The notes under the pieces were generated by a model. The model made no database searches and was not told where the DNA came from. It saw only the letters and a list, made by a program, of their open reading frames with translations. Source: Minisyncoccota bacterium (lineage in GTDB: Bacteria; Patescibacteriota; Minisyncoccia; Phycocordibacterales; UBA9973). From it: a DNA stretch of 64,000 nt. This document shows positions 4,441 through 57,756 of the stretch, piece by piece. The stretch is from the NCBI GenBank assembly GCA_041664285.1, contig JBAYLA010000002.1, positions 1,349 to 65,348 of the forward strand, read 5' to 3'. Positions within the stretch are counted from its first letter, which is position 1. Each line of letters opens with the position of its first letter. The position numbers and the translations under genes are program-made.

Positions 4441-4469
4441 AGATTAATTATAACAATTCCTCCTTTTTT

Positions 4470-28478: not shown

Positions 28479-28552
28479 ATGAATTAGGTTATAGGTTTTA
28501 GTTTCTAGAATTTTTACTAGTCCCTAGCAACTAGTCACTAACACCTAACCTT
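28479..28552 (-). promoter_or_regulatory. CTAG-rich leader element immediately 5' of the topA ATG, homologous to the atpD-atpC spacer element
   Basis: on the - strand it reads TTAGGTGTTAGTGACTAGTTGCTAGGGACTAGTAAAAATTCTAGAAACTAAAACCTATAACCTAATTC-AT-ATG, versus TTAGGTGCTAGTGACTAGGGACTAGTAAGCTAGAACC(TAGAACC)3TAAC-ATT-ATG for atpC. Confidence 0.6.
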
Positions 28553-30073: not shown

Positions 30074-30102
30074 TTGCAATTATAACAATATTTATATATA
30101 AT
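30074..30102 (+). promoter_or_regulatory. sigma70-like promoter TTGCAA-N17-TATAAT upstream of serS, followed by a CTAG-heptad leader (30103..30149)
   Basis: seen directly; leader ACTAGAATAGCACTAGAAACTATAATCTAGAAGCTAGAACCTAATTT-ATG. Confidence 0.45.
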
Positions 30103-30149
30103 ACTAGAATAGCACTAGAAACTATAATCTAGAAGCTAGAACCTAATTT

Positions 30150-34958: not shown

Positions 34959-35092
34959 AAATAAATTTTAATATATAAATATGATTATATCAAATTTGTA
35001 TGCATAAATTATACCACTTATGATTTTAATAGCCAACTAATATATAGATTTTTGTTAAGATTCATGCTATAAATTAAGTGTTTTAAAGATAT

Positions 35093-35166
35093 TGGGAGAT
35101 CGTCTAACGGTAGGACAGCGGCCTTTGAAGCCGTGAATCTTGGTTCGATTCCAAGTCTCCCAGCCA
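35093..35166 (+). tRNA. trnQ: tRNA-Gln (anticodon TTG), CCA encoded
   Basis: acceptor TGGGAGA/TCTCCCA, anticodon stem GCGGC/GCCGT with loop CTTTGAA, T-arm CTTGG-TTCGATT-CCAAG, discriminator G then CCA. Confidence 0.85.
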
Positions 35167-35221
35167 CCTCGAGCGCGTCTCGAACGCTCTAGATGCTTAG
35201 AAATCATTATTAATAAATAAT

Positions 35222-36085
35222 ATGGATCAAGTCTCAGCATTAACATTAATAAATTTATCAAAAGACATAGCACAGCTTAATTTAGGATATTTAGGAATAT
35301 CAGTGGCCATTTTGGGTGTACTTGGTGTGGTTTTTGTTTATTTCAATTTAAATCCATTAAAGGAAACCTTAAGTAAACAAGAGAAAAAAATTGAAGATTT
35401 AAAAACAGAAGCACATGATTTATTAAATCAATCAAAGGAGCAGTCTGAAAAAACTCTCGATGATTTTAAAATAAATCAATCCAATATGGTGACTTCAATT
35501 TTTAAACAACAAAAAAATGAAATCGATCTAGAAACAAAAAATAAAATTCAAGAATCTTATACTATATTGTTAGAAAAAATAGAAAGTATTTCAGAAGACA
35601 AGGACACAAAACTTAAAGAAATTATTATATCTGAAGCTAATAATAGTTTAGCTAATTTAGACAAAGATCTTACTGCAAAAATAAGCGCCATGAAAGAAGA
35701 TATTCTCAAAGAAGTTAAGGCGATAAATACTGGATTTAAAGCAAGAATAAAAGAACTGGATGAGAAAATTAAAGAATTACAAGTTTATAAGTATAGTAAA
35801 GAGGGACAAATGGGCGCAATAATTTATTCCATTGAATTGCTTGAAAATGCTATAGATGATTATCTAGAATTCAAAAAAATACTTAAAGGAGTTCCATTTA
35901 ACGCTGAAACACATGGTTGGAAAATTAATCTTAGAATAGAAGGATTAATAAAAGAAATTGGTGATCTTCCTGTTGAACAAGAATATATTTCAAAAATTAA
36001 TTTACAATTAACAAAAATTGAAAACGAATCTATTTTTAAAAATTTAATTGACAAACTCAGGAAAAAACTTTTACCTGTGGCATAA
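35222..36085 (+). CDS. hypothetical membrane-anchored coiled-coil protein (287 aa)
   Basis: one N-terminal TM then long K/E-rich heptad-like region. Confidence 0.5.
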   Translation: MDQVSALTLINLSKDIAQLNLGYLGISVAILGVLGVVFVYFNLNPLKETLSKQEKKIEDLKTEAHDLLNQSKEQSEKTLDDFKINQSNMVTSIFKQQKNEIDLETKNKIQESYTILLEKIESISEDKDTKLKEIIISEANNSLANLDKDLTAKISAMKEDILKEVKAINTGFKARIKELDEKIKELQVYKYSKEGQMGAIIYSIELLENAIDDYLEFKKILKGVPFNAETHGWKINLRIEGLIKEIGDLPVEQEYISKINLQLTKIENESIFKNLIDKLRKKLLPVA

Positions 36086-36096
36086 ACTGGATACTC

Positions 36097-36188
36097 TAGA
36101 CGCGTCGTTTTGGTATAATAAAATAGAGCAGGGAAGCTTTACAGGGTAATGAATTGTACGGTTCTGTCACGAGACCGCCAGCCAGCAC
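36097..36188 (+). repeat. repeat R1: ~78-nt element (extended -10 TGGTATAAT plus conserved leader) ending in box GACCGCCAGCCAGCAC; near-identical copy at 38883..38960
   Basis: manual alignment of 36097..36174 with 38883..38960 gives about 9 of 10 identical positions; the CCAGCCAGCA box recurs at 36728..36751 and 37093..37115. Confidence 0.85.
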
Positions 36189-36219
36189 TTGTTAGGTTAA
36201 TAAATAGTATACTTAACTT

Positions 36220-36576
36220 ATGGAACCACTTTTTTCTGAAATCAAAAAATCTCTAGAAGATGGAAATTTTTATGCTGCGCTTTTTATGGTTCTGACTATC
36301 CCTGATATTTGTTTGTCTGTAAAAATGGGTAAGCACGCTGGGCAAGACTATGAAGAATGGTTTAATAATAATTTATCAAGATATAAAGGATACATGACGG
36401 GTAAAGATTGCTATGCTTTTAGGTGTGCTATCTTACACGAAGGATCAGATAATGTTTTATCTCAGTCAAAGAAAGATATAATTGATAAATTTGAAATTTT
36501 ATCTAAAAAAGAATCTTCTCATTTAATTTATATGGGGGCAATAAGTATAACGGGATTTTACAACCAACAAAATTAA
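36220..36576 (+). CDS. hypothetical protein (118 aa)
   Basis: ORF downstream of R1; no motif. Confidence 0.45.
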   Translation: MEPLFSEIKKSLEDGNFYAALFMVLTIPDICLSVKMGKHAGQDYEEWFNNNLSRYKGYMTGKDCYAFRCAILHEGSDNVLSQSKKDIIDKFEILSKKESSHLIYMGAISITGFYNQQN

Positions 36577-36727
36577 TTATAAATTTACATATTTTTTGCA
36601 ACGACATTATGAATTCTTCACAAAAATTTATTAGTGACAATAACCTAAATGCCAGAAATATTGTAGATATTAAAAGTAAATATAATGACGGATTTATAAG
36701 TATTGGTTAGATAAAACGACTCCGATA

Positions 36728-36751
36728 TCATTCCAGACTGCCAGCCAGCAC
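36728..36751 (+). repeat. repeat R2 box TCATTCCAGACTGCCAGCCAGCAC, 21 nt upstream of the next ATG
   Basis: matches R3 at about 25 of 28 positions; ATTCCA...CCAGCCA core loosely matches the tRNA-Gln T-loop/acceptor 3' end (GATTCCAAGTCTCCCAGCCA). Confidence 0.75.
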
Positions 36752-36772
36752 TTTTTAAGCTATAATTAAATT

Positions 36773-37078
36773 ATGAAGAAAGTTATTTTTAAAAAAGATA
36801 AATATAAAAAAGCTAGAGGAGGTTATTCAAGACTTTTGAATATTTTTTGTAGAAAATGTGGCAAACAAATTTGTCAGTATCAGAAAGATGGTCAAGGAAA
36901 TTTAAGAAGAATGTATATTGATAGAATCTCGGGAAAGAAAGTTCCTATCTTGGGAAAAAATTTGAGTTGTCCTGAAGGACACACACTAGGAATAAAAATT
37001 ATTTACGAAAAAGAGAATCGTCCAGCATTTCGATTATTTGTTGATTCAGTGACAAAAAAGATCGTTAAATTACATTAA
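36773..37078 (+). CDS. small zinc-ribbon protein (101 aa)
   Basis: CRKCGKQIC ... CPEGH spacing; basic. Confidence 0.45.
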   Translation: MKKVIFKKDKYKKARGGYSRLLNIFCRKCGKQICQYQKDGQGNLRRMYIDRISGKKVPILGKNLSCPEGHTLGIKIIYEKENRPAFRLFVDSVTKKIVKLH

Positions 37079-37092
37079 TAGCGGTTCCAACG

Positions 37093-37115
37093 TCATTCCA
37101 GACACCCAGCCAGCA
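37093..37115 (+). repeat. repeat R3 box TCATTCCAGACACCCAGCCAGCA, 5 nt upstream of the MFS gene ATG
   Basis: see R2. Confidence 0.75.
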
Positions 37116-37120
37116 TTTTT

Positions 37121-38380
37121 ATGAGAATTGAGAAAAAAACTTTTGAATCACTTAAGATAAGAAACTACAGATTATATTTTATTGGTCAATCTATTTCTTT
37201 ACCTGGAACTTGGATGCAGACAGTTGCTCAATCTTGGCTTGTATTAAAATTAACTGGTTCTGGTACAGCCTTGGGGCTTGTCCTTGCCTTACAATATTTG
37301 CCGATGCTTATTCTTGGACCCTGGGGAGGACTTTTAGTAGATAGATTTCCAAAAAGAAAATTATTATTTTTTACCCAATCCGCTTATGGTATATTCGCTT
37401 TAATTTTGGGAATTTTAGTACTTATAGGTACAGTACAGTTATGGATGATTTATATCTTTGCTTTTTGTTTGGGTTTGATAAATACAGTAGATAATCCGAC
37501 ACGACAGACTTTCGCTGTTGAAATGGTAAGTAAGGACAAGTTACATAATGCTATTGTTTTAAATTCAATTGAAATAAATCTCGCTCGAGTTGTTGGGCCT
37601 GCCCTAGCTGGTATTTTAATCTTATCTGTTGGAATTGGATTTTGTTTTATCCTAAATGCAATTTCTTTTATAGGGGTCATCATTTCTTTGTCTATGATGC
37701 ACTCAAAAGAATTATTCCCTTCTCCTCTGGTAAAAAAGAAAAAAGGACAAGTTATAGAAGGCCTAAAATATGTGAAAAACTCTCCAGTAATTAAAGACAC
37801 GATTATTATGATGGCAATCATTGGAACTTTGACTTATGAATTTAGTGTCAGTTTGCCACTTTTGACACAATCTACTTTTCATGGAGATGCAGGAACTTTT
37901 ACATTACTGACTTCTTCTATTGGAATAGGTGCAGTCATCGGTGGATTATTTATTGCTAGTCGTAAAAAAACTGGTTCTGTGACTATTGTTACTGGAGCTT
38001 TTTTCTTAGGACTTTTTGTTTTAGGTGCCTCAATGGCTCAAAATATCTTGATGGCGATTTTGTTGTTAATAGGAGTTGGCTTTTTTTCTATCTATTTTAA
38101 TTCTTCAGGAAATACTACAATTCAACTTGAAAGTTCTCCTTCTATGCGAGGCAGGGTCATGGCTCTTTGGGCAGTGGCATCTCTCGGTTCAACTCCAATA
38201 GGGAGCCCAATCATTGGTTGGGTCGGAGAACATATGGGAGCTAGATACTGCGTGGCTCTAGGAGGGGTAGCTGCAATTGTAGCTGCTTTGTTCGGGGCAA
38301 TACAATTAAAAAGAGGTAAATATCTAGAAGTACAGGAAAAAGAAATAGAGGAAACCGATATTTCTGTGCCAAAGATTTAA
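37121..38380 (+). CDS. MFS transporter (12 TM)
   Basis: MFS signature GPWGGLLVDRFPKRK between TM2 and TM3, 419 aa with about 12 hydrophobic segments. Confidence 0.8.
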   Translation: MRIEKKTFESLKIRNYRLYFIGQSISLPGTWMQTVAQSWLVLKLTGSGTALGLVLALQYLPMLILGPWGGLLVDRFPKRKLLFFTQSAYGIFALILGILVLIGTVQLWMIYIFAFCLGLINTVDNPTRQTFAVEMVSKDKLHNAIVLNSIEINLARVVGPALAGILILSVGIGFCFILNAISFIGVIISLSMMHSKELFPSPLVKKKKGQVIEGLKYVKNSPVIKDTIIMMAIIGTLTYEFSVSLPLLTQSTFHGDAGTFTLLTSSIGIGAVIGGLFIASRKKTGSVTIVTGAFFLGLFVLGASMAQNILMAILLLIGVGFFSIYFNSSGNTTIQLESSPSMRGRVMALWAVASLGSTPIGSPIIGWVGEHMGARYCVALGGVAAIVAALFGAIQLKRGKYLEVQEKEIEETDISVPKI

Positions 38381-38477
38381 ATAAACAAGGACGGTCCTTG
38401 TTTATTTAGCAGAAGGTACTTTTAGTTTTATTTTGATATAATAGTTTTATGAAAAATAAATATGTTATTATTTAAAA

Positions 38478-38876
38478 ATGGATTTTAGTTCAACCTCACT
38501 TGGATACATTTTAGATCTGTTTGCGACTATCTTTATTGTTTTTTCCATAGTTTTCCGATCTAAAAGAAGGATAGGGGTCGACTCTGAAACTTTATATGGT
38601 GGAAATCCGTTTGTATATGAGTCACAATTGAGATCATTTTGGGATGGATGGATTGGAATAATAATCTTTTTTATAGGAACAGTACTGCATTTATTTCATT
38701 TTCAATTAGGAATTAGGAATTTTATTCTAGTTCTCATCTTAACAATAATATTGTTAATAATTTTGAGGTTAATAATAATATTCTTTATAAAAAGAGATGT
38801 TAGAAAAAGATACAAACATTATGATTCTGTAAAGAAAGCGATGGATGAAGGTAAATATGATACTTATCCCAAATAG
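38478..38876 (+). CDS. hypothetical small membrane protein (132 aa)
   Basis: 3-4 TM segments; no motif. Confidence 0.45.
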   Translation: MDFSSTSLGYILDLFATIFIVFSIVFRSKRRIGVDSETLYGGNPFVYESQLRSFWDGWIGIIIFFIGTVLHLFHFQLGIRNFILVLILTIILLIILRLIIIFFIKRDVRKRYKHYDSVKKAMDEGKYDTYPK

Positions 38877-38882
38877 TCGCTC

Positions 38883-38960
38883 GAGATGCGTCGTTTTGAT
38901 ATAATAAAATAGAGCAGGGAAGCTTTACCGGGTAAGGAATTGTACAGTTCTATCACGAGG
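38883..38960 (+). repeat. repeat R4: second copy of the ~78-nt R1 element (extended -10 TGATATAAT plus leader), with the terminal CCAGCCAGCA box degenerated
   Basis: see R1. Confidence 0.85.
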
Positions 38961-39030
38961 ATGTCAGCAAAGTATTAAAACTGTTATTTTAAAGTTGCAA
39001 ATAGACTTAAAGGTTGTAGTATTATAATAC

Positions 39031-39846
39031 ATGGTCAAAACATTAATTCTAAATGATGTTAAAAAGACTTTTGACGTTGGAAAACCGTTTGAAGTGTTAA
39101 AGAATATTACTCTAGATGTGAATGAAGGAGATTTTGTTTCCATAGTTGGACCAAGTGGTTGTGGAAAATCAGTTCTTCTTTATTTAATTGCTGGTTTTAT
39201 AGAAAAAACATCTGGACAAGTTTTAATTAATAATAATTCTATTGTTCGGCCCGGTACTGATAGAATGATGGTTTTCCAGGACTACGTGCTACTTCCATGG
39301 AAAAGCGTTTATGATAATGTTCTCTTCAGTTTAGAAAAAAGCGATTTAAGCGATAAAGAAAAAAAGGAGCTTACAACAAAATATATTGACTTAGTAGGAC
39401 TTACTCAATTTAAAAATTGGCATATTCACAGACTCTCTGGAGGGATGAAACAAAAAGTTGCTATCGCCCGAGCGTTGATTGTAAATTCAAAAATTCTGCT
39501 TATGGATGAGCCTTTTTCCGCACTGGATCCACAGCAACGTAAATATTTGCGAAAAAGTCTTTTAGAGATATGTGAAAAGACAAAAAAAACAGTATTATTT
39601 GTTACACATAGTGTAAGTGAGGCTTTATATCTTTCAAACAAAATATATGTAATGAGTTCATGTCCGGCAGTAATTAAAAATCGTTATGACATTAATATAC
39701 CACATCCACGACATTCTTCAGATCCACAATATGTTCGTTTTAAAGAAAAAATTGAAGAAGATTTATTTCAAGAGTTTGAAAAAACACTACTAAATCAAAG
39801 AGAGGAAACATTAATTGATTTAATATTAAAAACAGAAGTGATATGA
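39031..39846 (+). CDS. ABC transporter ATP-binding protein (NitT/TauT family, SsuB/TauB-like)
   Basis: Walker A GPSGCGKS, signature LSGGMKQKVAIARAL, Walker B LLMDEPFSALD. Confidence 0.85.
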   Translation: MVKTLILNDVKKTFDVGKPFEVLKNITLDVNEGDFVSIVGPSGCGKSVLLYLIAGFIEKTSGQVLINNNSIVRPGTDRMMVFQDYVLLPWKSVYDNVLFSLEKSDLSDKEKKELTTKYIDLVGLTQFKNWHIHRLSGGMKQKVAIARALIVNSKILLMDEPFSALDPQQRKYLRKSLLEICEKTKKTVLFVTHSVSEALYLSNKIYVMSSCPAVIKNRYDINIPHPRHSSDPQYVRFKEKIEEDLFQEFEKTLLNQREETLIDLILKTEVI

Positions 39847-40880
39847 GTAAATCTAAAAAAAGTTTAATTATAGTCATCAGTATATTTCTTGCCTTATGTT
39901 TTATTTTTTTTCTATATATAACATTTGAACAGGAATTTAAAAAAGATGAGTTTCTTAAAATAGGATATGCTGGTCATAGTCTCAATTACGGATCAGTAAT
40001 GGTGGCATACGAGGGGGATTTTTTTAATAAGCATGGAGTATCAACCAAGCTAGTATCTTTTAAATCTGGTTCAGAAATAGGCCTTGCACTTGCAACGGGG
40101 AAAATTGATGTGGCCCTTCTTAGTATTTCTAGCGCTCTGATCACTATTGATGCTGGAGCTCCAATTAAAATAATAGGCCCAACAGCAAGAGCATCTACTG
40201 TTGTATTTGTAAGACCGAACGACTCTATCCAGTCATTTAGTGATCTGCGCGGGAAAAAGATTGAGGGTGGAGGGACAGGTACTTCAAAACTCGAGTTTCT
40301 TCGTGCAGCGTCTAAAGAAGGGTTAAAAGAATCTGATTTTACGTTTGTAGATGTTGACAAAGATTATAAAGAGATTGCTCTTTTACAAAAAAAAATAATT
40401 GATGCAATACCAACTAGTAAATATAACGCTGATTCTTTAATCAAAGCAGGGGCAATTCCATTAAAAGAATGGGAAGAAAAGAGATATGACAGAGTCTTTA
40501 ATGCGCACACATATATGGTGGTAAACACAAAATACGCACAAAACCATGAAGCAGAGATAGAAAAAGTTATAGATTCGATAATTGACGCACAGAGTTTTAT
40601 TGCCAAGGATCCTCAGAATGCGGCACCACTTGTAGTTCGAAATATTCAAAACGCAACCGATGGCGTTGCAAATTTTACTACTTCACAAGTATTGGAAAAT
40701 TGGCAAAAAAGTATTCGGTATATTGTGTGGTCAGATCCAAATGAAGTTATTGATATAGTAAATTTTTTACGTGCATCAAAAGGAATTAAAAATACACTTA
40801 CTCTTGATCAGATATTTGATTTACATTTTTTATCAAAACTAGAAAAAATGCAAAAAATAATATATGGCTCGGAAAATTAA
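39843..40880 (+). CDS. ABC transporter substrate-binding protein, NMT1/THI5-SsuA-like, membrane anchored
   Basis: N-terminal TM, periplasmic-binding-protein type 2 fold features; ATGA overlap with the ATPase gene. Confidence 0.55.
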   Translation: MSKSKKSLIIVISIFLALCFIFFLYITFEQEFKKDEFLKIGYAGHSLNYGSVMVAYEGDFFNKHGVSTKLVSFKSGSEIGLALATGKIDVALLSISSALITIDAGAPIKIIGPTARASTVVFVRPNDSIQSFSDLRGKKIEGGGTGTSKLEFLRAASKEGLKESDFTFVDVDKDYKEIALLQKKIIDAIPTSKYNADSLIKAGAIPLKEWEEKRYDRVFNAHTYMVVNTKYAQNHEAEIEKVIDSIIDAQSFIAKDPQNAAPLVVRNIQNATDGVANFTTSQVLENWQKSIRYIVWSDPNEVIDIVNFLRASKGIKNTLTLDQIFDLHFLSKLEKMQKIIYGSEN

Positions 40881-41643
40881 AAACATAGCGCTAGGTTCTA
40901 TTCCATTTTTAGTTGTTATTATTATCTGGTTTTTTGGTAATTATTTTTCTTTCTTTCCGAGATGGATGATACCATCACCATTTACAACCGCACAAACATT
41001 TTTTTGGCTTATCAAAGATGGTACATTGCTTCAGCTGGCGTGGGGAAGCATTCAAATCGCTTTAGTTGGTTTTGGATTTGCAACGATCGTTGCAGTTATT
41101 TTGGGAATCCTTATAGGGAGTTATCCAACAATGCGTAAAATTTTCTTTCCTTTTTTCTCTGCAGTATATATTGTTCCTTCACTAGCTTGGTTACCTGTAA
41201 TTATATTGATTTTGGGATTTACAAAAACAACAGTTATCTGTATTGTGTTCCTCTCAAGTTTTAAAAAAATAATTTATAACGTGGTAAGCGGAGTACGTAG
41301 TGTAAATATCAGCTGGATACTGGCTGGAAAAAACATTGGTTTAAATAAGTTTGAAATTACGTACAAAATTATTATTCCCGCTGCATTACCTCAAATAATT
41401 ACAGGTCTTAGAATGGGATTTGCTAGTGCTTGGAGAACTTTGATTGGAGCTGAAATGTTAGTTTCCGGAGCTGCTGGCTTGGGAAGATTTATTTGGAATG
41501 CACAATGGTTTTTGGCTTTTGATAAGGTTTTTTCTGGAATTATTATAATTGCATTAATTGGTATGCTAGCGGAACAATTTGTATTTAAACCTTTTGAGGA
41601 TAAGACATTAATAAAATGGGGTTTAGCACAAGAAGAAATATGA
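40864..41643 (+). CDS. ABC transporter permease (NitT/TauT family)
   Basis: six TM helices and the EAA-like loop motif of binding-protein-dependent permeases; overlaps the upstream gene. Confidence 0.75.
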   Translation: MARKIKNIALGSIPFLVVIIIWFFGNYFSFFPRWMIPSPFTTAQTFFWLIKDGTLLQLAWGSIQIALVGFGFATIVAVILGILIGSYPTMRKIFFPFFSAVYIVPSLAWLPVIILILGFTKTTVICIVFLSSFKKIIYNVVSGVRSVNISWILAGKNIGLNKFEITYKIIIPAALPQIITGLRMGFASAWRTLIGAEMLVSGAAGLGRFIWNAQWFLAFDKVFSGIIIIALIGMLAEQFVFKPFEDKTLIKWGLAQEEI

Positions 41644-41686
41644 AAATATTATCCTTATTCTTCTATAAGTTTGATATAATAAAAAT

Positions 41687-41983
41687 ATGAAAAAACCATT
41701 TTTATATGCATTGGGGGCAGCTAGCTATATTGTTGTTATAGTTTTCGTTGTAAAAGTCTTGGGTTCTGCCCTAAAGATCCAAAACGAAACTATAATTATT
41801 CCAATGACTATGTTAAGCCTATTTGTATTGTCAGCTGCAGTGATGGGATTTTTATTTTTATCTGAATCTCTATATTTACTTGTAGAGAATCGAAGAAAAG
41901 AAGCTATTATTTTCTTTGGGAAAATTGTTGGATTTTTTGCTTGCTTCGTAGTTGTTTTTACAATTTTACTTTTCTTTCTATGA
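41687..41983 (+). CDS. hypothetical small membrane protein (98 aa)
   Basis: three hydrophobic segments. Confidence 0.4.
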   Translation: MKKPFLYALGAASYIVVIVFVVKVLGSALKIQNETIIIPMTMLSLFVLSAAVMGFLFLSESLYLLVENRRKEAIIFFGKIVGFFACFVVVFTILLFFL

Positions 41984-43074
41984 TAATTATTTTTCTCTCT
42001 GTAGTTTCTTTTGTCCTTGCTTTGACGCATTTTGTTATTTATAAAGTAATTATTTCTTTATTTTCTTTTTCTTCAGTTGAGCGAATAATTATAGGAATTA
42101 TTTTAACGATTCTTTGCCTTAGTTTTATTATTGCATCAATATTAACTTTTAATTTTAATAATTCATTTACTCGTATTTTTTATATAACTTCTGCTTCATG
42201 GCTTGGTTTTGCTTTTTACTTATTTTTATTTTCTTGTATATACATTCTAACCCTAGAAATGTTGAGACTATTTGGAGTAAATATTTCATTAAAATGGTTC
42301 GGCATTTTATGTCTTATTATTGCTATTATTATCGGAATTTATGGTCTCATTCATGCACGCTATATAAATATAAAAAACATAAATGTCGCTCTACCTAATC
42401 TTCCGGTTAGTTGGCAAGGGAAAAAAGCTGTATGGATTAGTGATTTACATTTAGGAGTTATATATGATACAAATTTTACTCAAAACATAGTAAACAAAAT
42501 AAATGAAATAAATCCAGACATCGTTTTTATTGGAGGGGATCTTTATGATGGAACAAAAGTAGATGAAATTGACATTGTAAAACCTTTTACAGGATTACAT
42601 CCGGCACTTGGTACGTATTTCATTACAGGAAATCATGAAGAATTTCGCAATAATAAAGTTTACTTGAATGCAATAAGCAGTACAGGAATTCATATTCTCG
42701 ATAATGAAATGATTATAATAGACGGAGTACAGATAATAGGTGTAAATGACAAAGACTCTACAAATGTTGCTGAGTTTAACATTATTCTTTCAAGTTTAAA
42801 TATAGATAAAAGTAAACCAATTATTCTTTTAAAGCACCAGCCTTTTCAATTAGCGCAAGCTGCACAAGCAGGCATTTCTTTCCAAATTTCGGGACATACT
42901 CATCAAGCCCAGATGTTTCCTCTTAATATATTTACAAATTTAATTTATAAGGGTTATGATTATGGTTTTCACAAAGTAGATAAAATGGACGTATTTACTT
43001 CAAACGGAGTAGGAACATGGGGGCCTCCTATGAGAGTGGGAAATAATGCTGAAATAGTTGTTTTTAATTTTTAA
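41979..43074 (+). CDS. membrane-anchored metallophosphoesterase (calcineurin-like)
   Basis: N-terminal multi-TM region then VWISDLHLG, GGDLYDG, GNHE, GHTH motifs; start set at the ATGA overlap with the previous gene. Confidence 0.7.
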
Positions 43075-43111
43075 AGGGGTATAGTATAGTAAAATTTTAA
43101 TCCAATAGAAT

Positions 43112-43735
43112 ATGAAATTTTTTAAACCAAAAAGTTCAGAATTTTTTAATTTATTTAAAGAAGTAGGGAATGATTTAAGTAATATATCTACATTGTTAGT
43201 GCGGTTTTCTAAGGAATTTAAGGATTTCGAAAGATATGCGCAGGAGGCTAAAAAAATTGAACATTTAGCTGATCAAAAAACTTATCAAATAGTCGATTTA
43301 TTGAATAAAACATTTATTACTCCTTTTGACCGAGAAGATATTTACCTCTTGGCTCATGAGCTTGATGACATTATTGATTTAACTGAAAACGTAGTACATT
43401 ACATTTATCTTTATGAAATTACCAATAAAATTTCTTCTTTTGAAGAATTTTCTGATCTTATTAAGCAGGGAGCAGTTAATACAGAAAAATTAATTGTTTG
43501 CCTAGAAAAACAAAAATGTACTCCTGAACTTTATCAAATAAAAAAATTCATGCACGACTTAGAAGATCGAGGCGATGAAGCTTTTGCTAAAGCTATTTCT
43601 CAATTATTTAAGAAAGAGAAAGATCCAATCATAATAATGAAGGAAAAAGAAATCTTAGAATGCTTGGAAAATATTTTAGACAAATATCAGAAAGTGAGTG
43701 ACATTATTGAGGGAATTTTAGTTAAATCAAGTTAA
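43112..43735 (+). CDS. DUF47 / PhoU-like Pit accessory protein
   Basis: pattern of DUF47 (YkaA-like) proteins, which are typically adjacent to pit; 207 aa. Confidence 0.65.
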   Translation: MKFFKPKSSEFFNLFKEVGNDLSNISTLLVRFSKEFKDFERYAQEAKKIEHLADQKTYQIVDLLNKTFITPFDREDIYLLAHELDDIIDLTENVVHYIYLYEITNKISSFEEFSDLIKQGAVNTEKLIVCLEKQKCTPELYQIKKFMHDLEDRGDEAFAKAISQLFKKEKDPIIIMKEKEILECLENILDKYQKVSDIIEGILVKSS

Positions 43736-43741
43736 AATTTT

Positions 43742-44746
43742 ATGGTCAGTACAACTCTTCTGCTGGTGATCTTCATTATAGTTATTGCCTTAATTTTTGA
43801 TTTTACTAACGGTATCCATGATTCAGCTAATTCTATTGCTACTATTGTTTCTACTCGTGTCCTCTCTCCCAGACAAGCTGTGTGCTGGGCGGCCTTTTTT
43901 AATTTTATTGCTTTTCTAGTTTTTGGTACGGGAGTAGCGAGTACCATAGGAAAAGGTCTAATAGATTTAAAAACAGTTACTCCTTTTGTTGTCTTGGCAG
44001 GTTTATTGGGTGCTATTATTTGGAATTTAATAACTTGGTTTTTGGGTTTACCTACAAGTTCTTCTCATGCTTTAATTGGTGGTTATATTGGCGCGTCTAT
44101 TGTTAATGCAGGATTCGGGGTAATTATTTTAGGTGGTTTTATTAAAATAATTATATTTATTTTTCTAGCTCCTATTATAGGATTCCTTCTTGGTATGTTG
44201 TTTATGTATATCACTATGCGTGTTTTAGAAAAAAAACATGCTTCACCACAACCTGTAACCACCTGGTCTAAACGTATGCAACTTGTTTCTGCTGCAGCTT
44301 ATAGCCTGGGTCATGGTGGCAATGATGCACAGAAAACAATGGGCATTATCACTAGTTTGTTATTTTCTGTTGGATATATTAAAACTTTTACTATTCCACT
44401 ATGGGTTGTTTTATCTGCACAAGCAGCTATTGCGCTCGGTACTTTAATGGGGGGATGGAGGATTGTAAAAACAATGGGTCAAAAAATTGTACGATTGAAA
44501 CCGTTAGATGGTGTTTGCGCAGAAACGGCTAGTGCTATTAGTATTTTCTTAGCGACACATTTTGGTATTCCTGTTTCCACTACTCATATTATTACTGGAG
44601 CAATTTCAGGGGTAGGAGCAACAAAGAGAATGTCGTCGGTACGATGGCAAACAACTTTTCGTATTGTTTGGGCGTGGGTGTTTACTATCCCAGCAGCAGC
44701 TTTTGTCGGGGGATTCATTTTCTTTATTCTAAAATTTATATTTTAA
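43742..44746 (+). CDS. pit: inorganic phosphate transporter, PiT family
   Basis: PHO4 motifs GIHDSANSIAT (N half) and GHGGNDAQKTMG (C half). Confidence 0.8.
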   Translation: MVSTTLLLVIFIIVIALIFDFTNGIHDSANSIATIVSTRVLSPRQAVCWAAFFNFIAFLVFGTGVASTIGKGLIDLKTVTPFVVLAGLLGAIIWNLITWFLGLPTSSSHALIGGYIGASIVNAGFGVIILGGFIKIIIFIFLAPIIGFLLGMLFMYITMRVLEKKHASPQPVTTWSKRMQLVSAAAYSLGHGGNDAQKTMGIITSLLFSVGYIKTFTIPLWVVLSAQAAIALGTLMGGWRIVKTMGQKIVRLKPLDGVCAETASAISIFLATHFGIPVSTTHIITGAISGVGATKRMSSVRWQTTFRIVWAWVFTIPAAAFVGGFIFFILKFIF

Positions 44747-44752
44747 TCTTGT

Positions 44753-44781
44753 TTGACAACACACCATTTTTCTGGTAAAGT
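44753..44781 (+). promoter_or_regulatory. sigma70-like promoter TTGACA-N17-TAAAGT
   Basis: consensus -35 and spacing seen directly. Confidence 0.4.
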
Positions 44782-44823
44782 ATTTTCGGCTATTTGTTTC
44801 TTACAAAAAAAGGAGGATACGTA

Positions 44824-45135
44824 ATGGCGACAGTTCAGCCTAAAAAGAAAAGAAAGAAAGAAAAAATGGATGTTGTGGAAGAAGGAATTATCCTTGAGCT
44901 GTTGGAACATGGAGAGAAGGCTTACTTTAATAAATGCGGGTATTTTATTAAGGGGAGCAGTGATTCTGCCTGGGTGCATTCAAAAGATGCACTTATGCTA
45001 AAAATGGAATCATTACGCCCTAAGGCTGAGTATTTATTTTTTCATCCGGCTATTTACAACTTCACAACGGGGCGGAAGAAAATAATAGGAAAACCCGACT
45101 CTTTTAATGATTTCTTCACTAAGAAAAAAATTTAA
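44824..45135 (+). CDS. hypothetical basic protein (start set at the ATG after AAAGGAGG)
   Basis: strong SD AAAAAGGAGG 8 nt before the ATG at 44824; the ORF track starts earlier at 44794. Confidence 0.5.
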   Translation: MATVQPKKKRKKEKMDVVEEGIILELLEHGEKAYFNKCGYFIKGSSDSAWVHSKDALMLKMESLRPKAEYLFFHPAIYNFTTGRKKIIGKPDSFNDFFTKKKI

Positions 45136-45179
45136 TTAATAGAGACAAATAGCCAAAATTTGTTTCCCAAAAAATCTCG

Positions 45180-45220
45180 AAGGGCAGATTACATCATGTG
45201 TGTCTGCCTTTCTTTAATTT
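45180..45220 (+). terminator. possible rho-independent terminator (AAGGGCAGA...TCTGCCTTT followed by a T-rich run)
   Basis: 9-bp stem but a long 14-nt loop; weak. Confidence 0.35.
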
Positions 45221-45317
45221 TAGTCACTATTTTTTATAAAAAGATCATTATTAGACTTTCAATAAAGTAAATAATCTAGTATAATATATCTATTAAAAGT
45301 AACGCCACAAAAATTAT

Positions 45318-45554
45318 ATGAAAAATAACAATTGTGAAAGTTGTATGATGCCTCTTAGTAAAGACCCTGGTCAAAGTGGGTCCGACCAATACTGCAGTTA
45401 TTGTTTTAAAGATGGTAAATTTACCTATGAAGGAAATGATGTAAATGAATTTAAAAAAGGTTCATATGAAGAGATGCGAAAGAAAGGCACGAATCCAATT
45501 CTAGCAAAATTCTATACTTGGATGATTGGTTTCGCTCCTAGGTGGAAAAAATAA
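45318..45554 (+). CDS. small zinc-ribbon domain protein (78 aa)
   Basis: CESCMMP...CSYCFKDG pairs. Confidence 0.45.
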   Translation: MKNNNCESCMMPLSKDPGQSGSDQYCSYCFKDGKFTYEGNDVNEFKKGSYEEMRKKGTNPILAKFYTWMIGFAPRWKK

Positions 45555-45557
45555 AAT

Positions 45558-46052
45558 ATGAAATTCATCAGAATATTTTTACTTATCTTAATAATCATTG
45601 GTATTTTCTTGTTGTGCACTCAACAAATTTGGGTACCGAAATTGGTTGATAGAATTCTTTCATCTGAAGCTTCAAAAAATATAATACCCGTTCCAAATAA
45701 GACAACAACAAAAGCTGATCTCATTCAAGTTGATTATCCTCAACCAAATCAAAATATTTCAAGCCCACTTGTTATAAAAGGAAAAGCACGAGGTAATTGG
45801 TTTTTTGAAGCAAGTTTTCCGGTAGTTTTGACTAATTGGGATGGATTAATAATTGCACAGGGAGTTGCCCAAGCACAAGGAGATTGGATGACAACAGAAT
45901 TTGTCCCATTTGAGGCAACCCTTACATTTGATGTAGATAAAAAAGCATATAGCAATAAAGGAGCATTAACATTACAAAAAGATAATCCATCTGGCTTGTC
46001 AGAAAAGGATGATTCAATTGAAATTCCTGTTGTATTTACTGAAGTAAAATAA
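45558..46052 (+). CDS. membrane-anchored Gmad2-like immunoglobulin-fold protein
   Basis: signal/TM, then ISSPLVIKGKARGNWFFEASFPVVL...AQGDWMTTEFVPFEATLTF pattern of the Gmad2 Ig-like domain. Confidence 0.55.
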   Translation: MKFIRIFLLILIIIGIFLLCTQQIWVPKLVDRILSSEASKNIIPVPNKTTTKADLIQVDYPQPNQNISSPLVIKGKARGNWFFEASFPVVLTNWDGLIIAQGVAQAQGDWMTTEFVPFEATLTFDVDKKAYSNKGALTLQKDNPSGLSEKDDSIEIPVVFTEVK

Positions 46053-46056
46053 AAAT

Positions 46057-47145
46057 ATGTTTCCTATACACTATATTCGTAATTTTTATGGCAAGTTTGA
46101 ACGCCCAATTTCGTCTCTATCTTTGGTAGCTGGATTCGTTTTTGACGCATTAACACTCAAACGAGTAGATACTTTATGGGAAAATCTTTGGATTTTAGGA
46201 CACCTTCTTATTATTGGGATTTTTATAACCTTAATACATTTAAAAGAAAACGAAGGTGGTAATGAGAAAGATCCAAAAAAAGCCCATTTTTGGTACGTTA
46301 ATATATTGCAGTTTTTCTTTGGAGGAATTCTTTCCACTTATTTAGTTTTTTATTTTCGAAGTGCTGATATTTTTGTAACTTGGCCATTTATTGCTCTTTT
46401 AGTTGGCGCTTTTATCGCTAACGAATCTTTAAAACGACACTATATTAGGCTTAGTTTCCAAATAAGTTTATTTTTTCTTTCTGTTTATTCATTCGCAATT
46501 TTTTTAGTACCGGTAGTGTTACATAAAATTGGCGATTGGGTATTTCTACTTTCTGGATTTCTAAGCTTAATTTTTATTGTTATTTTCTTAAAGATTTTAT
46601 TTTATTTTATAAAAGATAAATTCACGGAAAGTAAAAAATTAATTATATCCTTGATTTTAGGTATTTTTATTTTAGTTAACTTTTTATATTTCACAAATTT
46701 AATTCCGCCTATTCCACTTTCTCTTAAAGATGCTGGGATGTATCATTCAATTCAAAAAAACAGAGAGGGGAATTATGACATTACTTATGAGAATTATGGA
46801 TGGAGAGGCTTTTTCAATTTATATCCAAATTTCCAACAAATTGATGGAGCTCCTGTCTATGCTTTTAGTGCTATTTTTTCTCCTAAAAATCTTAACCTTA
46901 CGATTTTGCACGAATGGCAACATTACGATGAAATACAAAAGGAATGGATAACCGAAAGGGTAATAAATTTACCTGTTATCGGTGGGCGAGATGGTGGTTT
47001 CCGTACATACTCTATGCGAATAAACTTAGCGTCTGGTAAATGGCGAGTAAATATTAAGACTGAGCAAAATCAAAATATTGGCAGTTTACGCTTTAATATA
47101 ATTCAAACAAACACCGAACCTACGCTCGCTATAGGGGTAAAATAG
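46057..47145 (+). CDS. hypothetical polytopic membrane protein (362 aa)
   Basis: about 7 TM segments then a soluble C-terminal domain. Confidence 0.5.
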   Translation: MFPIHYIRNFYGKFERPISSLSLVAGFVFDALTLKRVDTLWENLWILGHLLIIGIFITLIHLKENEGGNEKDPKKAHFWYVNILQFFFGGILSTYLVFYFRSADIFVTWPFIALLVGAFIANESLKRHYIRLSFQISLFFLSVYSFAIFLVPVVLHKIGDWVFLLSGFLSLIFIVIFLKILFYFIKDKFTESKKLIISLILGIFILVNFLYFTNLIPPIPLSLKDAGMYHSIQKNREGNYDITYENYGWRGFFNLYPNFQQIDGAPVYAFSAIFSPKNLNLTILHEWQHYDEIQKEWITERVINLPVIGGRDGGFRTYSMRINLASGKWRVNIKTEQNQNIGSLRFNIIQTNTEPTLAIGVK

Positions 47146-47151
47146 AGAAAA

Positions 47152-47709
47152 TTATTCATTTATTTCATTCATAATAAGGCTCTTAGCATTTTGTCCTGTA
47201 TAAAGAATCGTTTTTAAATTAGGATATTTTTTAAAATCAAGATCTTCAAAATGCTTAGCTTTATCATCAATAAATACCACTTTTTCTTCTTTATGCTTAG
47301 TGCATATTTTTTCTATTGCTTCTTTTTTACTTCCTGATACAACAATTATTTCTGAAAACAAAGAGGACACTCCTGTTCGCTCTATTTTATCTATTTGATA
47401 TTCTGCTTCACCATAACTAACAACATAACAATTTGATTTTCCAAGTTTTTTTATCCATGTAATTAATTCATTTTTAACAAAACTTTTATTTTTACCCATT
47501 ATCTCTTTATACATATTTTCATTTACGGAAAAATGAGCCAGCATTTTTTTTAATGAAAATTTATTCCATCGTTCTTTCTCAACATATTCTTTTGATAGAT
47601 TATGTGGCACACCGGCTTTTTCTAATGAGGAATATATATGTTCTCTAAAATTTTTTGGATTACAAGAAGTATTGAATAACACATCGTCAAAATCAAAAAT
47701 ATACTTCAT
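47152..47709 (-). CDS. HAD-superfamily hydrolase
   Basis: motif I FDFDDVLFNT at the N-terminus. Confidence 0.5.
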   Translation of the reverse strand: MKYIFDFDDVLFNTSCNPKNFREHIYSSLEKAGVPHNLSKEYVEKERWNKFSLKKMLAHFSVNENMYKEIMGKNKSFVKNELITWIKKLGKSNCYVVSYGEAEYQIDKIERTGVSSLFSEIIVVSGSKKEAIEKICTKHKEEKVVFIDDKAKHFEDLDFKKYPNLKTILYTGQNAKSLIMNEINE

Positions 47710-47710
47710 C

Positions 47711-48700
47711 TTATTTGTTTATTATTTTAGCTATACATTCTGCTAATTTAAGAGAATCATGACGAATAAATCCTCTTGTAACTGGAATAACATCCTCAGA
47801 ACTTTTCTTGAAAACTATATGAGATAAAAGGGGAGTTCGAACTACCCTACTATCCCTAAAATCATCTTCTATAAATACCCCTTCTCCTTCTTCTAGTTTA
47901 TATTGCTCCATTTGGGAAGAGGATGGTTCTTCGCTATTAACTAAAATAATATCAACTAACTTTCCTAGATATTTTTCTATATCATTTACATAATTACTCA
48001 CTTTCCAATCAGTGGTATGTCCTAATTTATTCGTAAGATTAATTGGTAAAATAATCTTTGCCTTACTTTCTATAACAGCTTCTTTAAAACCACTTACTAT
48101 TAGATTAGGTACAATGGAGCAAAAATAGTTTCCTGGACCAAGAATAATATAATCGGCTTTTAGAATAGCTACTTTAGCGTGTTCATTTAATAAAACTTCA
48201 TTTTTGTAAAAAATTTCTTTTATTCCTTCAGCTTGCAAATTGGCATTTTGGATATTGTCTTCTCCTTTAAATACTTTTCCATTTAAAAGTGAAGCTACTA
48301 ATTCAGCTTTGTAATTTGTTACAGGAATAACCTTTCCATTAACTTTCAAAATCTCTGATGCGATTTCTACTCCTTTTCCAAAATCCCCAGTAACTTTTTC
48401 TAAGGCTGCAAGAAAAATATTGCCAAAATTGTGCCCTTTTAAAGTTCCTTCATTGAATCGATAGTTCATTAACTTGCGAACAATATCGCTATGTTCACTT
48501 AGGGCAACCAAGCATTGCCTAACGTCTCCAGGAGGCAAGACTCCAAGTTCATCCATTAGTACCCCTGTTGAACCGCCATTATCTGACATAGAGACAAGCG
48601 CAGTCAAAGAAACATCTGGTAAATTTTTCAAACCAGATAAAACAGTATAGCTTCCTGTTCCTCCGCCTATTGTCACAATATTTTTTATCATAGGTTCCAT
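47711..48700 (-). CDS. yvcK: YvcK/CofD-family protein (gluconeogenesis factor / UPF0052)
   Basis: IVTIGGGTGSYTVLSGLK ... SMSDNGGSTGVLMDELGVLPPGDVRQCLVAL. Confidence 0.8.
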   Translation of the reverse strand: MEPMIKNIVTIGGGTGSYTVLSGLKNLPDVSLTALVSMSDNGGSTGVLMDELGVLPPGDVRQCLVALSEHSDIVRKLMNYRFNEGTLKGHNFGNIFLAALEKVTGDFGKGVEIASEILKVNGKVIPVTNYKAELVASLLNGKVFKGEDNIQNANLQAEGIKEIFYKNEVLLNEHAKVAILKADYIILGPGNYFCSIVPNLIVSGFKEAVIESKAKIILPINLTNKLGHTTDWKVSNYVNDIEKYLGKLVDIILVNSEEPSSSQMEQYKLEEGEGVFIEDDFRDSRVVRTPLLSHIVFKKSSEDVIPVTRGFIRHDSLKLAECIAKIINK

Positions 48701-56025: not shown

Positions 56026-57756
56026 ATGAAAGAAGAAATAAAAACACAATCTACGATATGCCAGAATTGCAAAAAGAACTTTGCCATAGACGTGGAAGAT
56101 TTTAATTTTTATGAAAAAATAAAAGTTTCACCACCTACTTTTTGTCCGGAATGCAGAATGCAAAGACGATTTGGCTATAGAAACGAACGTACTCTTTATC
56201 GTCGTAAGTGTGCCTTAACTGGTAAAGATGTTATTTCTTGCTTTGCGCCAGAAGTCCCTTTTAAAGTTATTGATCGTGATTTATGGTGGGGAGATAATTG
56301 GAACGAACTTGAAAGTGGTCGTGATTATGATTTTTCTAAATCATTTTTTGAACAATTTCATAAGCTTATGCAAGAAACTTACATGCCTGCACTTTTTATC
56401 GGCAAATGCGTGAATACAAAATATGGCAATCATATTGGCGAATTTAAAAATGCTTATCTTGTTTCTGCTTCGTGGATGGGAGAAGACATAATGTATGCTT
56501 CTCGTTGTAATTCTTGTAAAAATTCACTTGATATGTTCTCAACTTTTGAATGTCAGTTTTGTTATGGAGATATAGCTTGTATAAAATGCAACACCGTCTA
56601 TTTTTCAGAATACGCAACAGCTTGTTCGAGTTCAGCATTCCTTTATAATTGTCGTGGATGTATGGACTGTTTTTTGTGTTCAAATTTACGAAATAAACAA
56701 AATTGTTTTATGAACGAACAACTTTCTAAAGAGGAGTATAAAAAGCGTTTAGAAGAATACGAAATTGGTACTTGGTCTGGACTACAAAAAGCAAAAAATG
56801 CTTTCGAAAATCTAAAAAAAGAAACGATAAGGCGTTATGCGATAGTAATAAACTCTCAAAATGTGACTGGTGACAATATCACCAATGCCTTTAATCTTAA
56901 ACAATGTTTTGACGTAGCTAATCATATAAAAGATTGTTGTTATATTACAAACTCTCTTGATCGAGTTGAAGATTGTTATGATGGGCATGGTTTGGCTTCT
57001 ATTACCACCGGTCTAGAAATGATTGATACAGGAGACGAAGCTGGGCGTTGTTTCTTTGTGGCGACGGTGTGGGGAAGTCAAGATATGTGGTATTCATATA
57101 ATTGTCACAGCTGTAATAATTGTTTTGGTTGTGTGTGTTTAAAGAAAAAGTCTTATTGTGTTTTTAATAAACAATATTCAAAAGAAGAATATTTAATTTT
57201 AAAAGACAAAATTATTGAACAAATGAAAAAAGTACCTTTTATCGATAAAAAAGGGCGTATACATTCTTTCGGTGATTATTTTCCTGTAGAGCTTTCACCC
57301 TTTGCATATAATAAAACTATTGCCCAAGATTATTTTCCTAAGAGTAAAGAGGAAATAGAAAAAGAAGGTTGGTTTTTTGCAGAAATGAAACAAAGTGAAT
57401 ATACTATAACAAAACGTGAAAAAGATATTCCCGATTCAATTAATGATATTCAGGATTCTTTTGTTAACGAAGTTATTGAATGTACAATGTGTAAAAAAGC
57501 TTTTCGGGTAATGGAAAATGAACTTATTTATTTACGTAAGTTTGGTATTGCTGTTCCACGTTATTGTTTTGAGTGCCGCCACTTAGAAAGATTTTCAATG
57601 GTGAATTTACCAAGACTGTACCATAGACAATGTATGTGCGATAAGGAAAATCATAATCATGATGGAAATTGTATTAATAAATTTGAAACAAGCTACGCAC
57701 CCGATCGACCAGAGATAGTGTATTGTGAAAAATGTTACCAACAAGAAGTTTACTAG
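56026..57756 (+). CDS. large cysteine-rich protein of unknown function (paralog B, 576 aa), inserted between purL and purQ
   Basis: paralog of 10813..12522 (see there); no signal peptide. Confidence 0.8.
   Translation: MKEEIKTQSTICQNCKKNFAIDVEDFNFYEKIKVSPPTFCPECRMQRRFGYRNERTLYRRKCALTGKDVISCFAPEVPFKVIDRDLWWGDNWNELESGRDYDFSKSFFEQFHKLMQETYMPALFIGKCVNTKYGNHIGEFKNAYLVSASWMGEDIMYASRCNSCKNSLDMFSTFECQFCYGDIACIKCNTVYFSEYATACSSSAFLYNCRGCMDCFLCSNLRNKQNCFMNEQLSKEEYKKRLEEYEIGTWSGLQKAKNAFENLKKETIRRYAIVINSQNVTGDNITNAFNLKQCFDVANHIKDCCYITNSLDRVEDCYDGHGLASITTGLEMIDTGDEAGRCFFVATVWGSQDMWYSYNCHSCNNCFGCVCLKKKSYCVFNKQYSKEEYLILKDKIIEQMKKVPFIDKKGRIHSFGDYFPVELSPFAYNKTIAQDYFPKSKEEIEKEGWFFAEMKQSEYTITKREKDIPDSINDIQDSFVNEVIECTMCKKAFRVMENELIYLRKFGIAVPRYCFECRHLERFSMVNLPRLYHRQCMCDKENHNHDGNCINKFETSYAPDRPEIVYCEKCYQQEVY

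Follow-up and report, generated by a model that had tools for sequence, protein, structure and literature searches.

The window analysed here is the whole 64-kb stretch of DNA, which comes from a metagenome-assembled Candidatus Paceibacterota (CPR) genome, and searches of it covered 64 of the 89.8 kb of the contig. A tRNA-Gln (UUG) gene at positions 35093..35166 on the plus strand forms the left border of an accessory region of about 12 kb (35167..47150), in which all called genes are on the plus strand and which extends as far as HAD and CofD genes. In the relative L016, the HAD and CofD genes (minus strand) are located directly after tRNA-Gln, and they are the orthologues of window positions 47152-48700, with 61% and 68% amino-acid identity. 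Because the flanking orthologues directly follow the tRNA in L016, the interval 35167-47150 is interpreted as an accessory insertion of ~12 kb. It resembles a tRNA-linked genomic island in that it adjoins the 3′ end of a tRNA and is absent from a related genome (L016).

The SerRS-Dus-DnaX-tRNA-Gln backbone is common to the relatives with 85-93% identical DnaX, and the region 3′ of tRNA-Gln is different in every relative fetched. In L121-126, a GIY-YIG gene and an extra tRNA-Gln are inserted into tRNA-Gln, and the locus also shows a duplication of 47 nt and a disrupted copy in tandem. Within this clade, tRNA-Gln is visibly a preferred site of DNA insertion. Searches of 16 island ORFs (a set that leaves out a 78-aa ORF near 45320) against Pfam, PHROGs and NCBIfam return no integrase or recombinase, and a serine recombinase is present only in the relative L128. 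An anticodon-arm fragment is also seen after tRNA-Gln in L016.

Both copies of an 89-nt direct repeat, termed repeat A, are found inside the accessory region, and a 287-aa coiled-coil/membrane ORF (plus strand, as are all features in this paragraph) is located between tRNA-Gln and copy 1. The gene downstream of copy 1 (36220..36710) consists of a 118-aa ORF and its continuation in another frame. The fused 163-aa reading scores 95.6 bits against phrog_18591 (residues 1-148), compared with 82.7 bits for the 118-aa ORF alone, and because of this better score the 118-aa ORF is regarded as a frameshifted gene or the result of a sequencing indel. Next come a 101-aa Cys-rich ORF (36773-37078) and an MFS_3/EntS-like efflux transporter (37121-38380), followed by a hairpin (AAACAAGGA-CGG-TCCTTGTTT, then ATTT; 38383..38407) that was recognized by reading the sequence and was not called by the consensus scan. 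This hairpin looks like a terminator and would close the unit begun at A copy 1. A separate TGATATAAT promoter (38434-38442) and a 132-aa membrane ORF (38478-38876) follow, the latter ending just ahead of A copy 2. Beyond copy 2 lies an ABC importer operon of the SsuA/Nrt/Tau type (39020..41643, with a proximal -10-like box), whose genes encode an ATPase (39031), an SsuA/NMT1-type binding protein (39843) and a permease (40864). The two copies of A bracket a 2.8-kb block that comprises the phrog_18591-like gene, the 101-aa ORF, the MFS transporter gene and the 132-aa ORF. An earlier note on this DNA had placed the copies correctly, upstream of the 118-aa ORF and of the ABC operon, and had described the 118-aa ORF as an unknown gene. 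As phrog_18591 is a phage family, the gene downstream of copy 1 belongs to a phage-associated family; no viral loci were found for the fused phrog_18591-like protein.

Repeat A was delimited with a repeat finder and by sequence. Its copies (R1 and R4 of the earlier note) are located at 36094..36182 and 38880..38968, both on the plus strand, with 88% identity over the 89 nt and an offset of 2786 nt. The previous claim of a conserved element present twice is thereby confirmed, and the boundaries given for it (36097 to 36219) are only approximate, since the start lies 3 nt inside the repeat and the end 37 nt past the repeated part. The near-identical segment that was described downstream of the promoter is likewise present, as a 54-mer that is exact at 36120-36173 and has 4 differences in copy 2. 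The copies are 91% identical over 80 nt, a block with 7 substitutions that includes a perfect 29-nt stretch across the predicted transcription start site. Identity drops to roughly 50% in the 30 nt past this block and is nil leftward of the repeat.

The 19-mer core of A (TAGAGCAGGGAAGCTTTAC) has 2 matches in the window at ≤3 mismatches, against 0.06 expected, and no third copy of A is detected in the 64-kb window by sensitive blastn, a two-sequence nhmmer profile or a covariance model. The segment 35137-43082, with both copies, is present in identical form in an independently assembled Logan contig, so the duplication is not an assembly artefact. Copy 1 begins 8 nt past the stop codon of the 287-aa ORF and is located 100 nt upstream of the 118-aa ORF (36220); copy 2 begins 3 nt past the stop codon of the 132-aa ORF and is located 125 nt upstream of the ABC ATPase gene (39031). 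The left-end motif reads CTCTAGACGCGTCG in copy 1 (36094-36107) and CTCGAGATGCGTCG at the start of copy 2 (38880), each on the plus strand. Unique sequence occupies copy 1 up to ~36157, and ~40 nt of A match no other sequence at the locus. From 36158 onward, the right end of copy 1 resembles a second repeat family, B, and the tail of copy 2 past ~38960 has diverged from the B motif.

Both copies of A carry the sequence TTTTGrTATAAT. The extended -10 box that the earlier note reported for each copy is present as TGGTATAAT at 36111-36119 in copy 1 and as TGATATAAT at 38897-38905 in copy 2 (plus strand), and both boxes have the features of a sigma-70 extended -10 element, i.e. TGnTATAAT in an intergenic position pointing to a gene. 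Transcription from copy 1 is predicted to start near 36125-36127. The sequence TTTGATATAATAAAA also occurs upstream of a 98-aa ORF at 41687. Occurrences of TTTTGnTATAAT in the window number 4 against 0.38 expected, which supports the view that the copies of A, themselves homologous, share a promoter form typical of this genome. The generic promoter in the genome and its relatives consists of TGnTATAAT(AAAA..), 6 nt and ATG, and the promoter part of A equals it.

Many genes in the window and in relatives have a -10 hexamer ~6 nt ahead of the ATG and lack a Shine-Dalgarno sequence. Examples are a minus-strand gene at 3481-4440 (with its -10 box near 4455), the genes at 9085, 33341 (dnaX), 36773 and 41687 in the window, and a methyltransferase gene and the genes at 12406 and 13763 in the relative L012. 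This spacing and the missing Shine-Dalgarno sequence suggest that the mRNAs of this genome are leaderless. The genes downstream of A have start-proximal boxes of their own on the plus strand, namely TATACT at 36208-36213, 6 nt before the ATG of the 118-aa ORF, and the -10-like TATTAT at 39020-25, 5 nt before the ATG of the ABC ATPase gene. The promoters in A would therefore be extra, distal promoters, 100 and 125 nt upstream. At the position relative to the -10 box where an ATG is usual, A has GAG. We infer from the sequence that each copy of A provides at most an outward-reading constitutive promoter that would feed the downstream genes, and serving as outward-reading promoters is most likely the only function of the copies.

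The same promoter region can also be read as the promoter and operator of one DNA-binding regulator that co-controls the two transporter units, with 14 conserved nt ahead of the -10 box and ~50 nt beyond it as candidate operator sequences. In keeping with this, A is conserved on both sides of the -10 box, including the perfect 29-nt block over the predicted start site, and copy 1 contains a perfect 8-bp palindrome (GACGCGTC) at the position of the -35 region or spacer. The 118/101/MFS exporter unit and the SsuA-type ABC importer unit both end in transporters. Edges as sharp as those of the conserved block would not result from simple neutral decay of a larger duplication and call for either selection or a defined tract of recombination or conversion; sharp edges are consistent with selection on an operator. 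However, copy 2 has only an imperfect version of the palindrome (GATGCGTC), and palindromes of 8 bp can readily arise by chance within 89 nt (~0.3 expected by our estimate). The island contains no recognizable transcription factor gene, 64 kb hold no third site, and both genes have proximal promoters. An operator function for A is considered unlikely.

The repeat family B is a possible link between A and the tRNA. The sequence CCAGCCAGCA occurs exactly 3 times in the window, at 36178, 36741 and 37106, and these sites belong to the family B of ~55 nt. B copy 1 (CGGTTCTGTCACGAGACCGCCAGCCAGCACTTGTTAGG...; 36159..36208, plus strand) overlaps the right end of A copy 1. B copy 2 (R2; 36717..36771, plus strand) is located just past the end of the frameshifted phrog_18591-like gene and is followed by TATAAT, 6 nt and the ATG of the 101-aa ORF. 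B copy 3 (R3; 37081..37135, plus strand) begins 2 nt past the stop of the 101-aa ORF and extends into the start codon (ATG, 37121) of the MFS gene. Copies 2 and 3 thus start right after the preceding reading frame and lead through a -10-like box to the next ATG. Beyond the window, one homologue of B is found in L012 (minus strand, ~11298-11242); it matches copy 3 with 90% identity over 30 nt and directly follows the stop codon of the single gene after tRNA-Gln.

When the B copies are aligned with the 3′ end of tRNA-Gln, the local-alignment scores of R2, R3 and the L012 copy are reached by 2-7 of 1000 shuffles, and that of the copy overlapping A (R1) by 184 of 1000, which is not significant. 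The B sequences share only ~65-70% similarity with the tRNA in its present form. The right end of A (CGGTTCTGTCACGAGAC...) can be aligned to the 5′ half of B, and the sequence just past the B copy in L012, CTCGTCGTTTAAGCTATATAAAAT, is similar to the 5′ part of A (GCGTCGTTTTGGTATAATAAAAT). The left end of A resembles the tRNA trailer, and the sequence immediately after tRNA-Gln (CTCGAGCGCGTCTCGAACGCTCTAGATGC; 35167..35196, plus strand) contains two versions of the left-end motif of A. Exact matches to CTCKAGAYGC are found only at the starts of both A copies and at 35187, 20 nt after tRNA-Gln. The trailer sequence CCAGCCA-CCTCGAG is conserved in the relative L129.

The earlier note proposed that A includes a shared regulatory 5′ UTR, which corresponds to a promoter joined to a ligand- or signal-sensing leader (riboswitch or attenuator) common to the two operons. 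Transcripts from the A promoters would have leaders of ~95 and 125 nt, a length out of the ordinary in this genome. In other bacteria, the genes that riboswitches typically control include those for SsuA/Nrt-type ABC importers and for efflux pumps, e.g. with the ykkC guanidine-I class. The Rfam/Infernal scan that had been named as a check was run and places no family on A. At the gathering score, Rfam 15 identifies only 3 tRNAs in the whole window. At E≤10, it identifies no family on A in a 4.2-kb section of the window (35000-39200) and none in slices of 146 and 170 nt, in which a 10.9-bit Hairpin-ribozyme match to copy 1 is noise and copy 2 has no match. A riboswitch leader therefore has no Rfam match at any of these thresholds.

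Single-sequence folds of the leaders, the core and the opposite strand give z values of -1.2 to +0.7 relative to dinucleotide shuffles, i.e. the folds of A, including those of the leader only, are no more stable than those of shuffled sequence. The consensus scan detects no terminator-like sites in the leaders (36120-36220 and 38906-39031), and an expression platform between A and the genes is absent, with neither a terminator nor a Shine-Dalgarno sequence available for sequestering. The leader conservation in relatives that the proposal called for is not observed either. Apart from the two copies themselves, a covariance model of A finds no homologues in 240 kb of the window and related genomes, and the leaders of three distant homologous ABC operons (L002/L003, L004 and L130) have no similarity to A. 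The binding protein of the operon in the window has no relative above 50% identity among 5.8 billion proteins. An exact scan for TAGAGCAGGGAAGCTTTAC returns 1 chance match in species-representative genomes, in Shewanella LysR coding sequence and with no flanking similarity, and 5 unrelated matches in JGI metagenomes, none with flanking similarity. Three other A patterns, and one B pattern in viral contigs, give zero or chance matches, and blastn of A against plasmids and phages gives no match. The chance matches to the core in these collections fall in coding regions.

By every testable membership criterion, A falls outside the known riboswitches. The gene after copy 1 is frameshifted, and both downstream genes have their own -10 boxes at a leaderless distance. 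These proximal boxes also count against a shared regulatory 5′ UTR, as does a consensus structure that reaches upstream of the -10 box (see below), and the proposal is left unsupported by the lack of an Rfam family, of unusual folds, of a terminator and of homologues. The accompanying argument, that such conservation ahead of unrelated genes points to RNA-level regulation, is weakened because both copies are 2.8 kb apart in one accessory island, so that their identity is explained by descent through local duplication. The interpretation given in the earlier note is partly supported overall, and a sensing leader is judged improbable.

The consensus structure was predicted with RNAalifold from the two copies of A. 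It contains 25 pairs, of which 2 are compensatory (C-G to U-A at columns 12/77 and A-U to C-G at columns 54/61), 1 has a compatible one-sided change and none is broken, so that all 7 substitutions in the 80-nt block leave the structure intact. In a simulation in which 7 random substitutions were placed on copy 1 and RNAalifold was rerun (2000 trials), at least 2 compensatory pairs were obtained in 3.8% of trials (p = 0.038, from only two sequences). A column-shuffle control, in which the count was 117 of 500, is uninformative with two sequences. The folding term of the consensus fold is only -9.8 kcal/mol, the single-sequence z values are +0.36 and +0.18, and one of the two compensatory pairs falls in a 2-bp helix. 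The -10 box itself is paired in this structure, and one arm is located upstream of the box, so a transcript from that promoter cannot have the structure as its leader; for a riboswitch leader, all covariation-supported helices would need sequence from upstream of the transcription start. As modelled, the structure could form only in transcripts that read through from upstream genes or in single-stranded DNA.

This weak covariation signal keeps alive a reading of A as a structured 80-nt element (a 3′ UTR or read-through RNA, a single-stranded DNA recombination site or a miniature inverted-repeat element) whose ends pair (CTCKAGAY with RTCACGAG) and in which the promoter is incidentally embedded. 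Five G-U pairs would favour the plus strand as RNA, and the position of A immediately past stop codons is one that it shares with cassette recombination sites and many intergenic repeats. The low folding term, the ordinary z values, the 2-bp helix and the shuffle control speak against such an element, and the covariance model finds nothing else in the 240 kb searched. Moreover, there is no target-site duplication, no integron core site (RYYYAAC / GTTRRRY) at the ends of A and no intI or transposase, and the two copies are clustered rather than dispersed. A structured element of this kind is quite unlikely. A more elaborate proposal treats A and B as junctions of a tRNA-Gln-anchored, integron-like cassette array that operates with neither IntI nor attC, with A as a new structured, promoter-bearing element. 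If true, A would fold as RNA or single-stranded DNA with its ends paired, and each inserted block would arrive with or receive transcription, but this is highly improbable.

Several other candidate identities for A and B were tried and rejected. A is not a decayed copy or pseudogene of tRNA-Gln, as ARAGORN and the Rfam tRNA model find nothing and the score of the alignment of whole A with tRNA-Gln is reached by 198 of 1000 shuffles, which is not significant. Assignment of A to the MITEs is countered by an inverted repeat of 8 nt with 6/8 and 7/8 matches, no flanking duplication and 2 clustered copies. Assignment of A or B to integron attC sites or CALIN arrays is countered by the lack of paired core sites (a lone GTTAGGT follows B copy 1) and of intI. 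A coding function is rejected for frame +3, which has 3/4 synonymous changes (a result with a chance of ~0.27 across six frames, by our estimate) and no start codon in copy 2, and for the minus-strand ORFs of 30 aa, in which the changes are mostly non-synonymous. Guanidine-II-like ACGR hairpins are represented by one hairpin only, which is degraded in copy 2 and has no Rfam match. CTGTCAC does not qualify as a Pho box, since it is located to the wrong side of the -10 box and copy 2 has a mutated version. The 6-bp palindromes (XhoI, XbaI, MluI and HindIII sites) do not indicate vector DNA, as the window contains 29 TCTAGA and 43 AAGCTT sites and CTCGAG and ACGCGT are found elsewhere in it too. 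The 98 matches of the B pattern GGTTCCAACGTCNTNCCAGAC in viral contigs all fall in one conserved coding region of high-GC phages and are irrelevant.

In the preferred interpretation, which is adopted tentatively and at somewhat less than even confidence, A represents a cassette junction that carries a promoter and was duplicated within the tRNA-Gln-linked island. A would then be a junction module of a mosaic accessory island on the 3′ side of tRNA-Gln, composed of four pieces. The first would be the 14-nt left end, which is like the native tRNA-Gln trailer (CTCGAG..GCGTC), and the second the standard strong extended -10 promoter of the lineage (TTTTGrTATAATAAAAT). The third would be the ~40 nt of unique sequence, and the fourth the right end, homologous to the 5′ half of B, which in turn resembles the 3′ end of tRNA-Gln. 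The junction was probably copied when the 2.8-kb block was recombined into the array, or the two copies were homogenized later by gene conversion. The near-identical ‘leader’ would accordingly reflect recent common descent and probably contains no RNA sensor. The repeat, its promoter consensus, its setting in the island, its relation to B and to the tRNA trailer and the negative RNA tests are direct results of the analysis; promoter activity, for which the basis is sequence consensus, the duplication mechanism and the absence of a sensing function are inferred. The junction account is weakened by the absence of a recombinase from the island, the sharp edges of A, the weak covariation signal and the lack of an outgroup copy of A.

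If the junction account holds, A is an ordinary by-product of island assembly. The locus documents that accessory genes accumulate next to tRNA-Gln in a Paceibacterota (CPR) genome, and it also documents, for this lineage, TGnTATAAT promoters 6 nt before start codons and thus apparently leaderless mRNAs. To our knowledge, gene regulation and gene-cassette exchange are almost unstudied in uncultivated CPR bacteria with reduced genomes, and for this reason A or B would matter more if they were CPR-specific recombination or regulatory elements; the present evidence is insufficient for that claim.

Four kinds of known systems can be compared with A and B. Riboswitch leaders such as ykkC guanidine-I, mini-ykkC, the NMT1/xanthine motif and TPP are found upstream of transporters like those that follow A, and the GUC-ACGA-GAC mini-hairpin in copy 1 superficially recalls the ACGR loop of mini-ykkC. 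Unlike these leaders, A has no covariance-model match at E≤10 (146-nt slice) and no expression platform; the second ACGR hairpin of mini-ykkC is missing, and the mini-hairpin is degraded in copy 2. Integron cassette arrays (Pc, attI/attC; CALIN) share with this locus the co-oriented, short and mostly orphan ORFs, repeats that start right after stop codons and a strong promoter that reads into the array. They differ from it in that here the element ends lack RYYYAAC/GTTRRRY, B lacks an attC-type hairpin, intI is absent and the promoter is inside repeat A. Promoter-bearing MITEs, such as the Neisseria Correia and enterobacterial ERIC/IRU elements, are similar to A in that A is short (~80 nt) and intergenic, has imperfect terminal inverted repeats, is located just past stop codons and carries an outward-reading -10 box. 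In contrast to MITEs, A exists as two clustered copies with an 8-nt imperfect repeat, no target-site duplication and no parent insertion sequence seen.

The att repeats of tRNA-linked islands, which in tandem arrays are attL/attR copies of the tRNA 3′ end, differ from the present repeats in that no integrase is found here, the blocks are tiny (0.35-2.8 kb) and B is decayed to ~65-70% tRNA likeness. The body of A has no detectable tRNA similarity, and A far exceeds a typical core site in length and has a promoter inside it. The locus is nevertheless like such islands in that it adjoins the 3′ end of a tRNA and the region is missing from a relative, the co-oriented B repeats resemble the tRNA 3′ end, A starts with trailer-like sequence, and the two copies of A flank a discrete block of genes.

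The roughly 55-nt junction repeat B occurs in the window at 36159-36208, 36717-36771 and 37081-37135, with the first copy overlapping the right end of the first copy of A, the 89-nt promoter-bearing direct repeat. The family carries the sequence …GGTTCC..CCAGACnnCCAGCCAGCA…. Two of its three copies in the window begin directly where the upstream reading frame ends, as does the single homologue found in a related genome. This homologue (relative L012, about 11242-11298, minus strand) occupies the same position relative to tRNA-Gln as the family does in the window. B shows a partial resemblance to the 3' end of tRNA-Gln.

The gene downstream of the first copy of A (36220-36710), called as a 118-aa open reading frame, contains a frameshift near a run of five G nucleotides at about 36534-36538. 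When the two frames are fused, the resulting 163-aa reading aligns along almost its entire length with the phage family phrog_18591. The frameshift could mark a pseudogene or be a homopolymer sequencing error.

In many genes the ATG is preceded, at a distance of about 6 nt, by a TATAAT-like box, frequently of the form TGnTATAAT, and there is no Shine-Dalgarno sequence. Examples are found in the window at 4440 (minus strand), 9085, 33341, 36220, 36773 and 41687, and in L012 at 11922 (minus strand), 12421 and 13778. Such starts suggest, from sequence, that leaderless mRNAs are widespread in this Paceibacterota lineage. A putative promoter at 38434, TGATATAAT, is followed after 6 nt by the ATG of an 8-codon open reading frame (38449-38480 region), which ends 2 nt upstream of the ATG of the 132-aa open reading frame. 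This segment may represent a mini-ORF on a leaderless transcript, or nothing more than a leader of 29 nt.

In the window, runs of CTAGAAC-like heptamers (ctagaacctagaacctagaacc…) lie immediately upstream of three gene starts, at about 2575-2634, 28479-28540 (minus strand) and 30090-30149, preceding a 147-aa open reading frame (2635), topoisomerase I and seryl-tRNA synthetase, respectively; they may represent a shared regulatory or repeat motif. A 154-nt direct repeat with 71% identity (10827-10980 versus 56052-56205) lies within large open reading frames of 569 and 576 aa, which are evidently paralogues; the 576-aa frame has no Pfam match.

The accessory island at 35167-47150 (about 12 kb) is bordered by tRNA-Gln (35093-35166) on one side and HAD/CofD genes on the other, has all of its called genes on the plus strand, and is absent from the relative L016. 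It encodes an MFS exporter, an SsuA-type ABC importer and a PHO4 phosphate transporter (with PhoU_div), along with a metallophosphoesterase, Gmad2 and DUF2914 proteins and several orphan open reading frames. No recombinase gene was found in it.

In a related genome (L121 at 11050-11546; also L122-L126), tRNA-Gln is apparently interrupted by an additional tRNA-Gln together with the gene for a small GIY-YIG endonuclease. A tandem disrupted copy of the tRNA gene is present, and 47 nt of the tRNA 5' half, whose D-arm has a GC-rich hairpin inserted into it, are duplicated. Downstream of tRNA-Gln in another relative, L128 (18288-19664), lies a large serine recombinase with a restriction/modification-type island, an arrangement consistent with the tRNA-Gln site being an integration hot spot.
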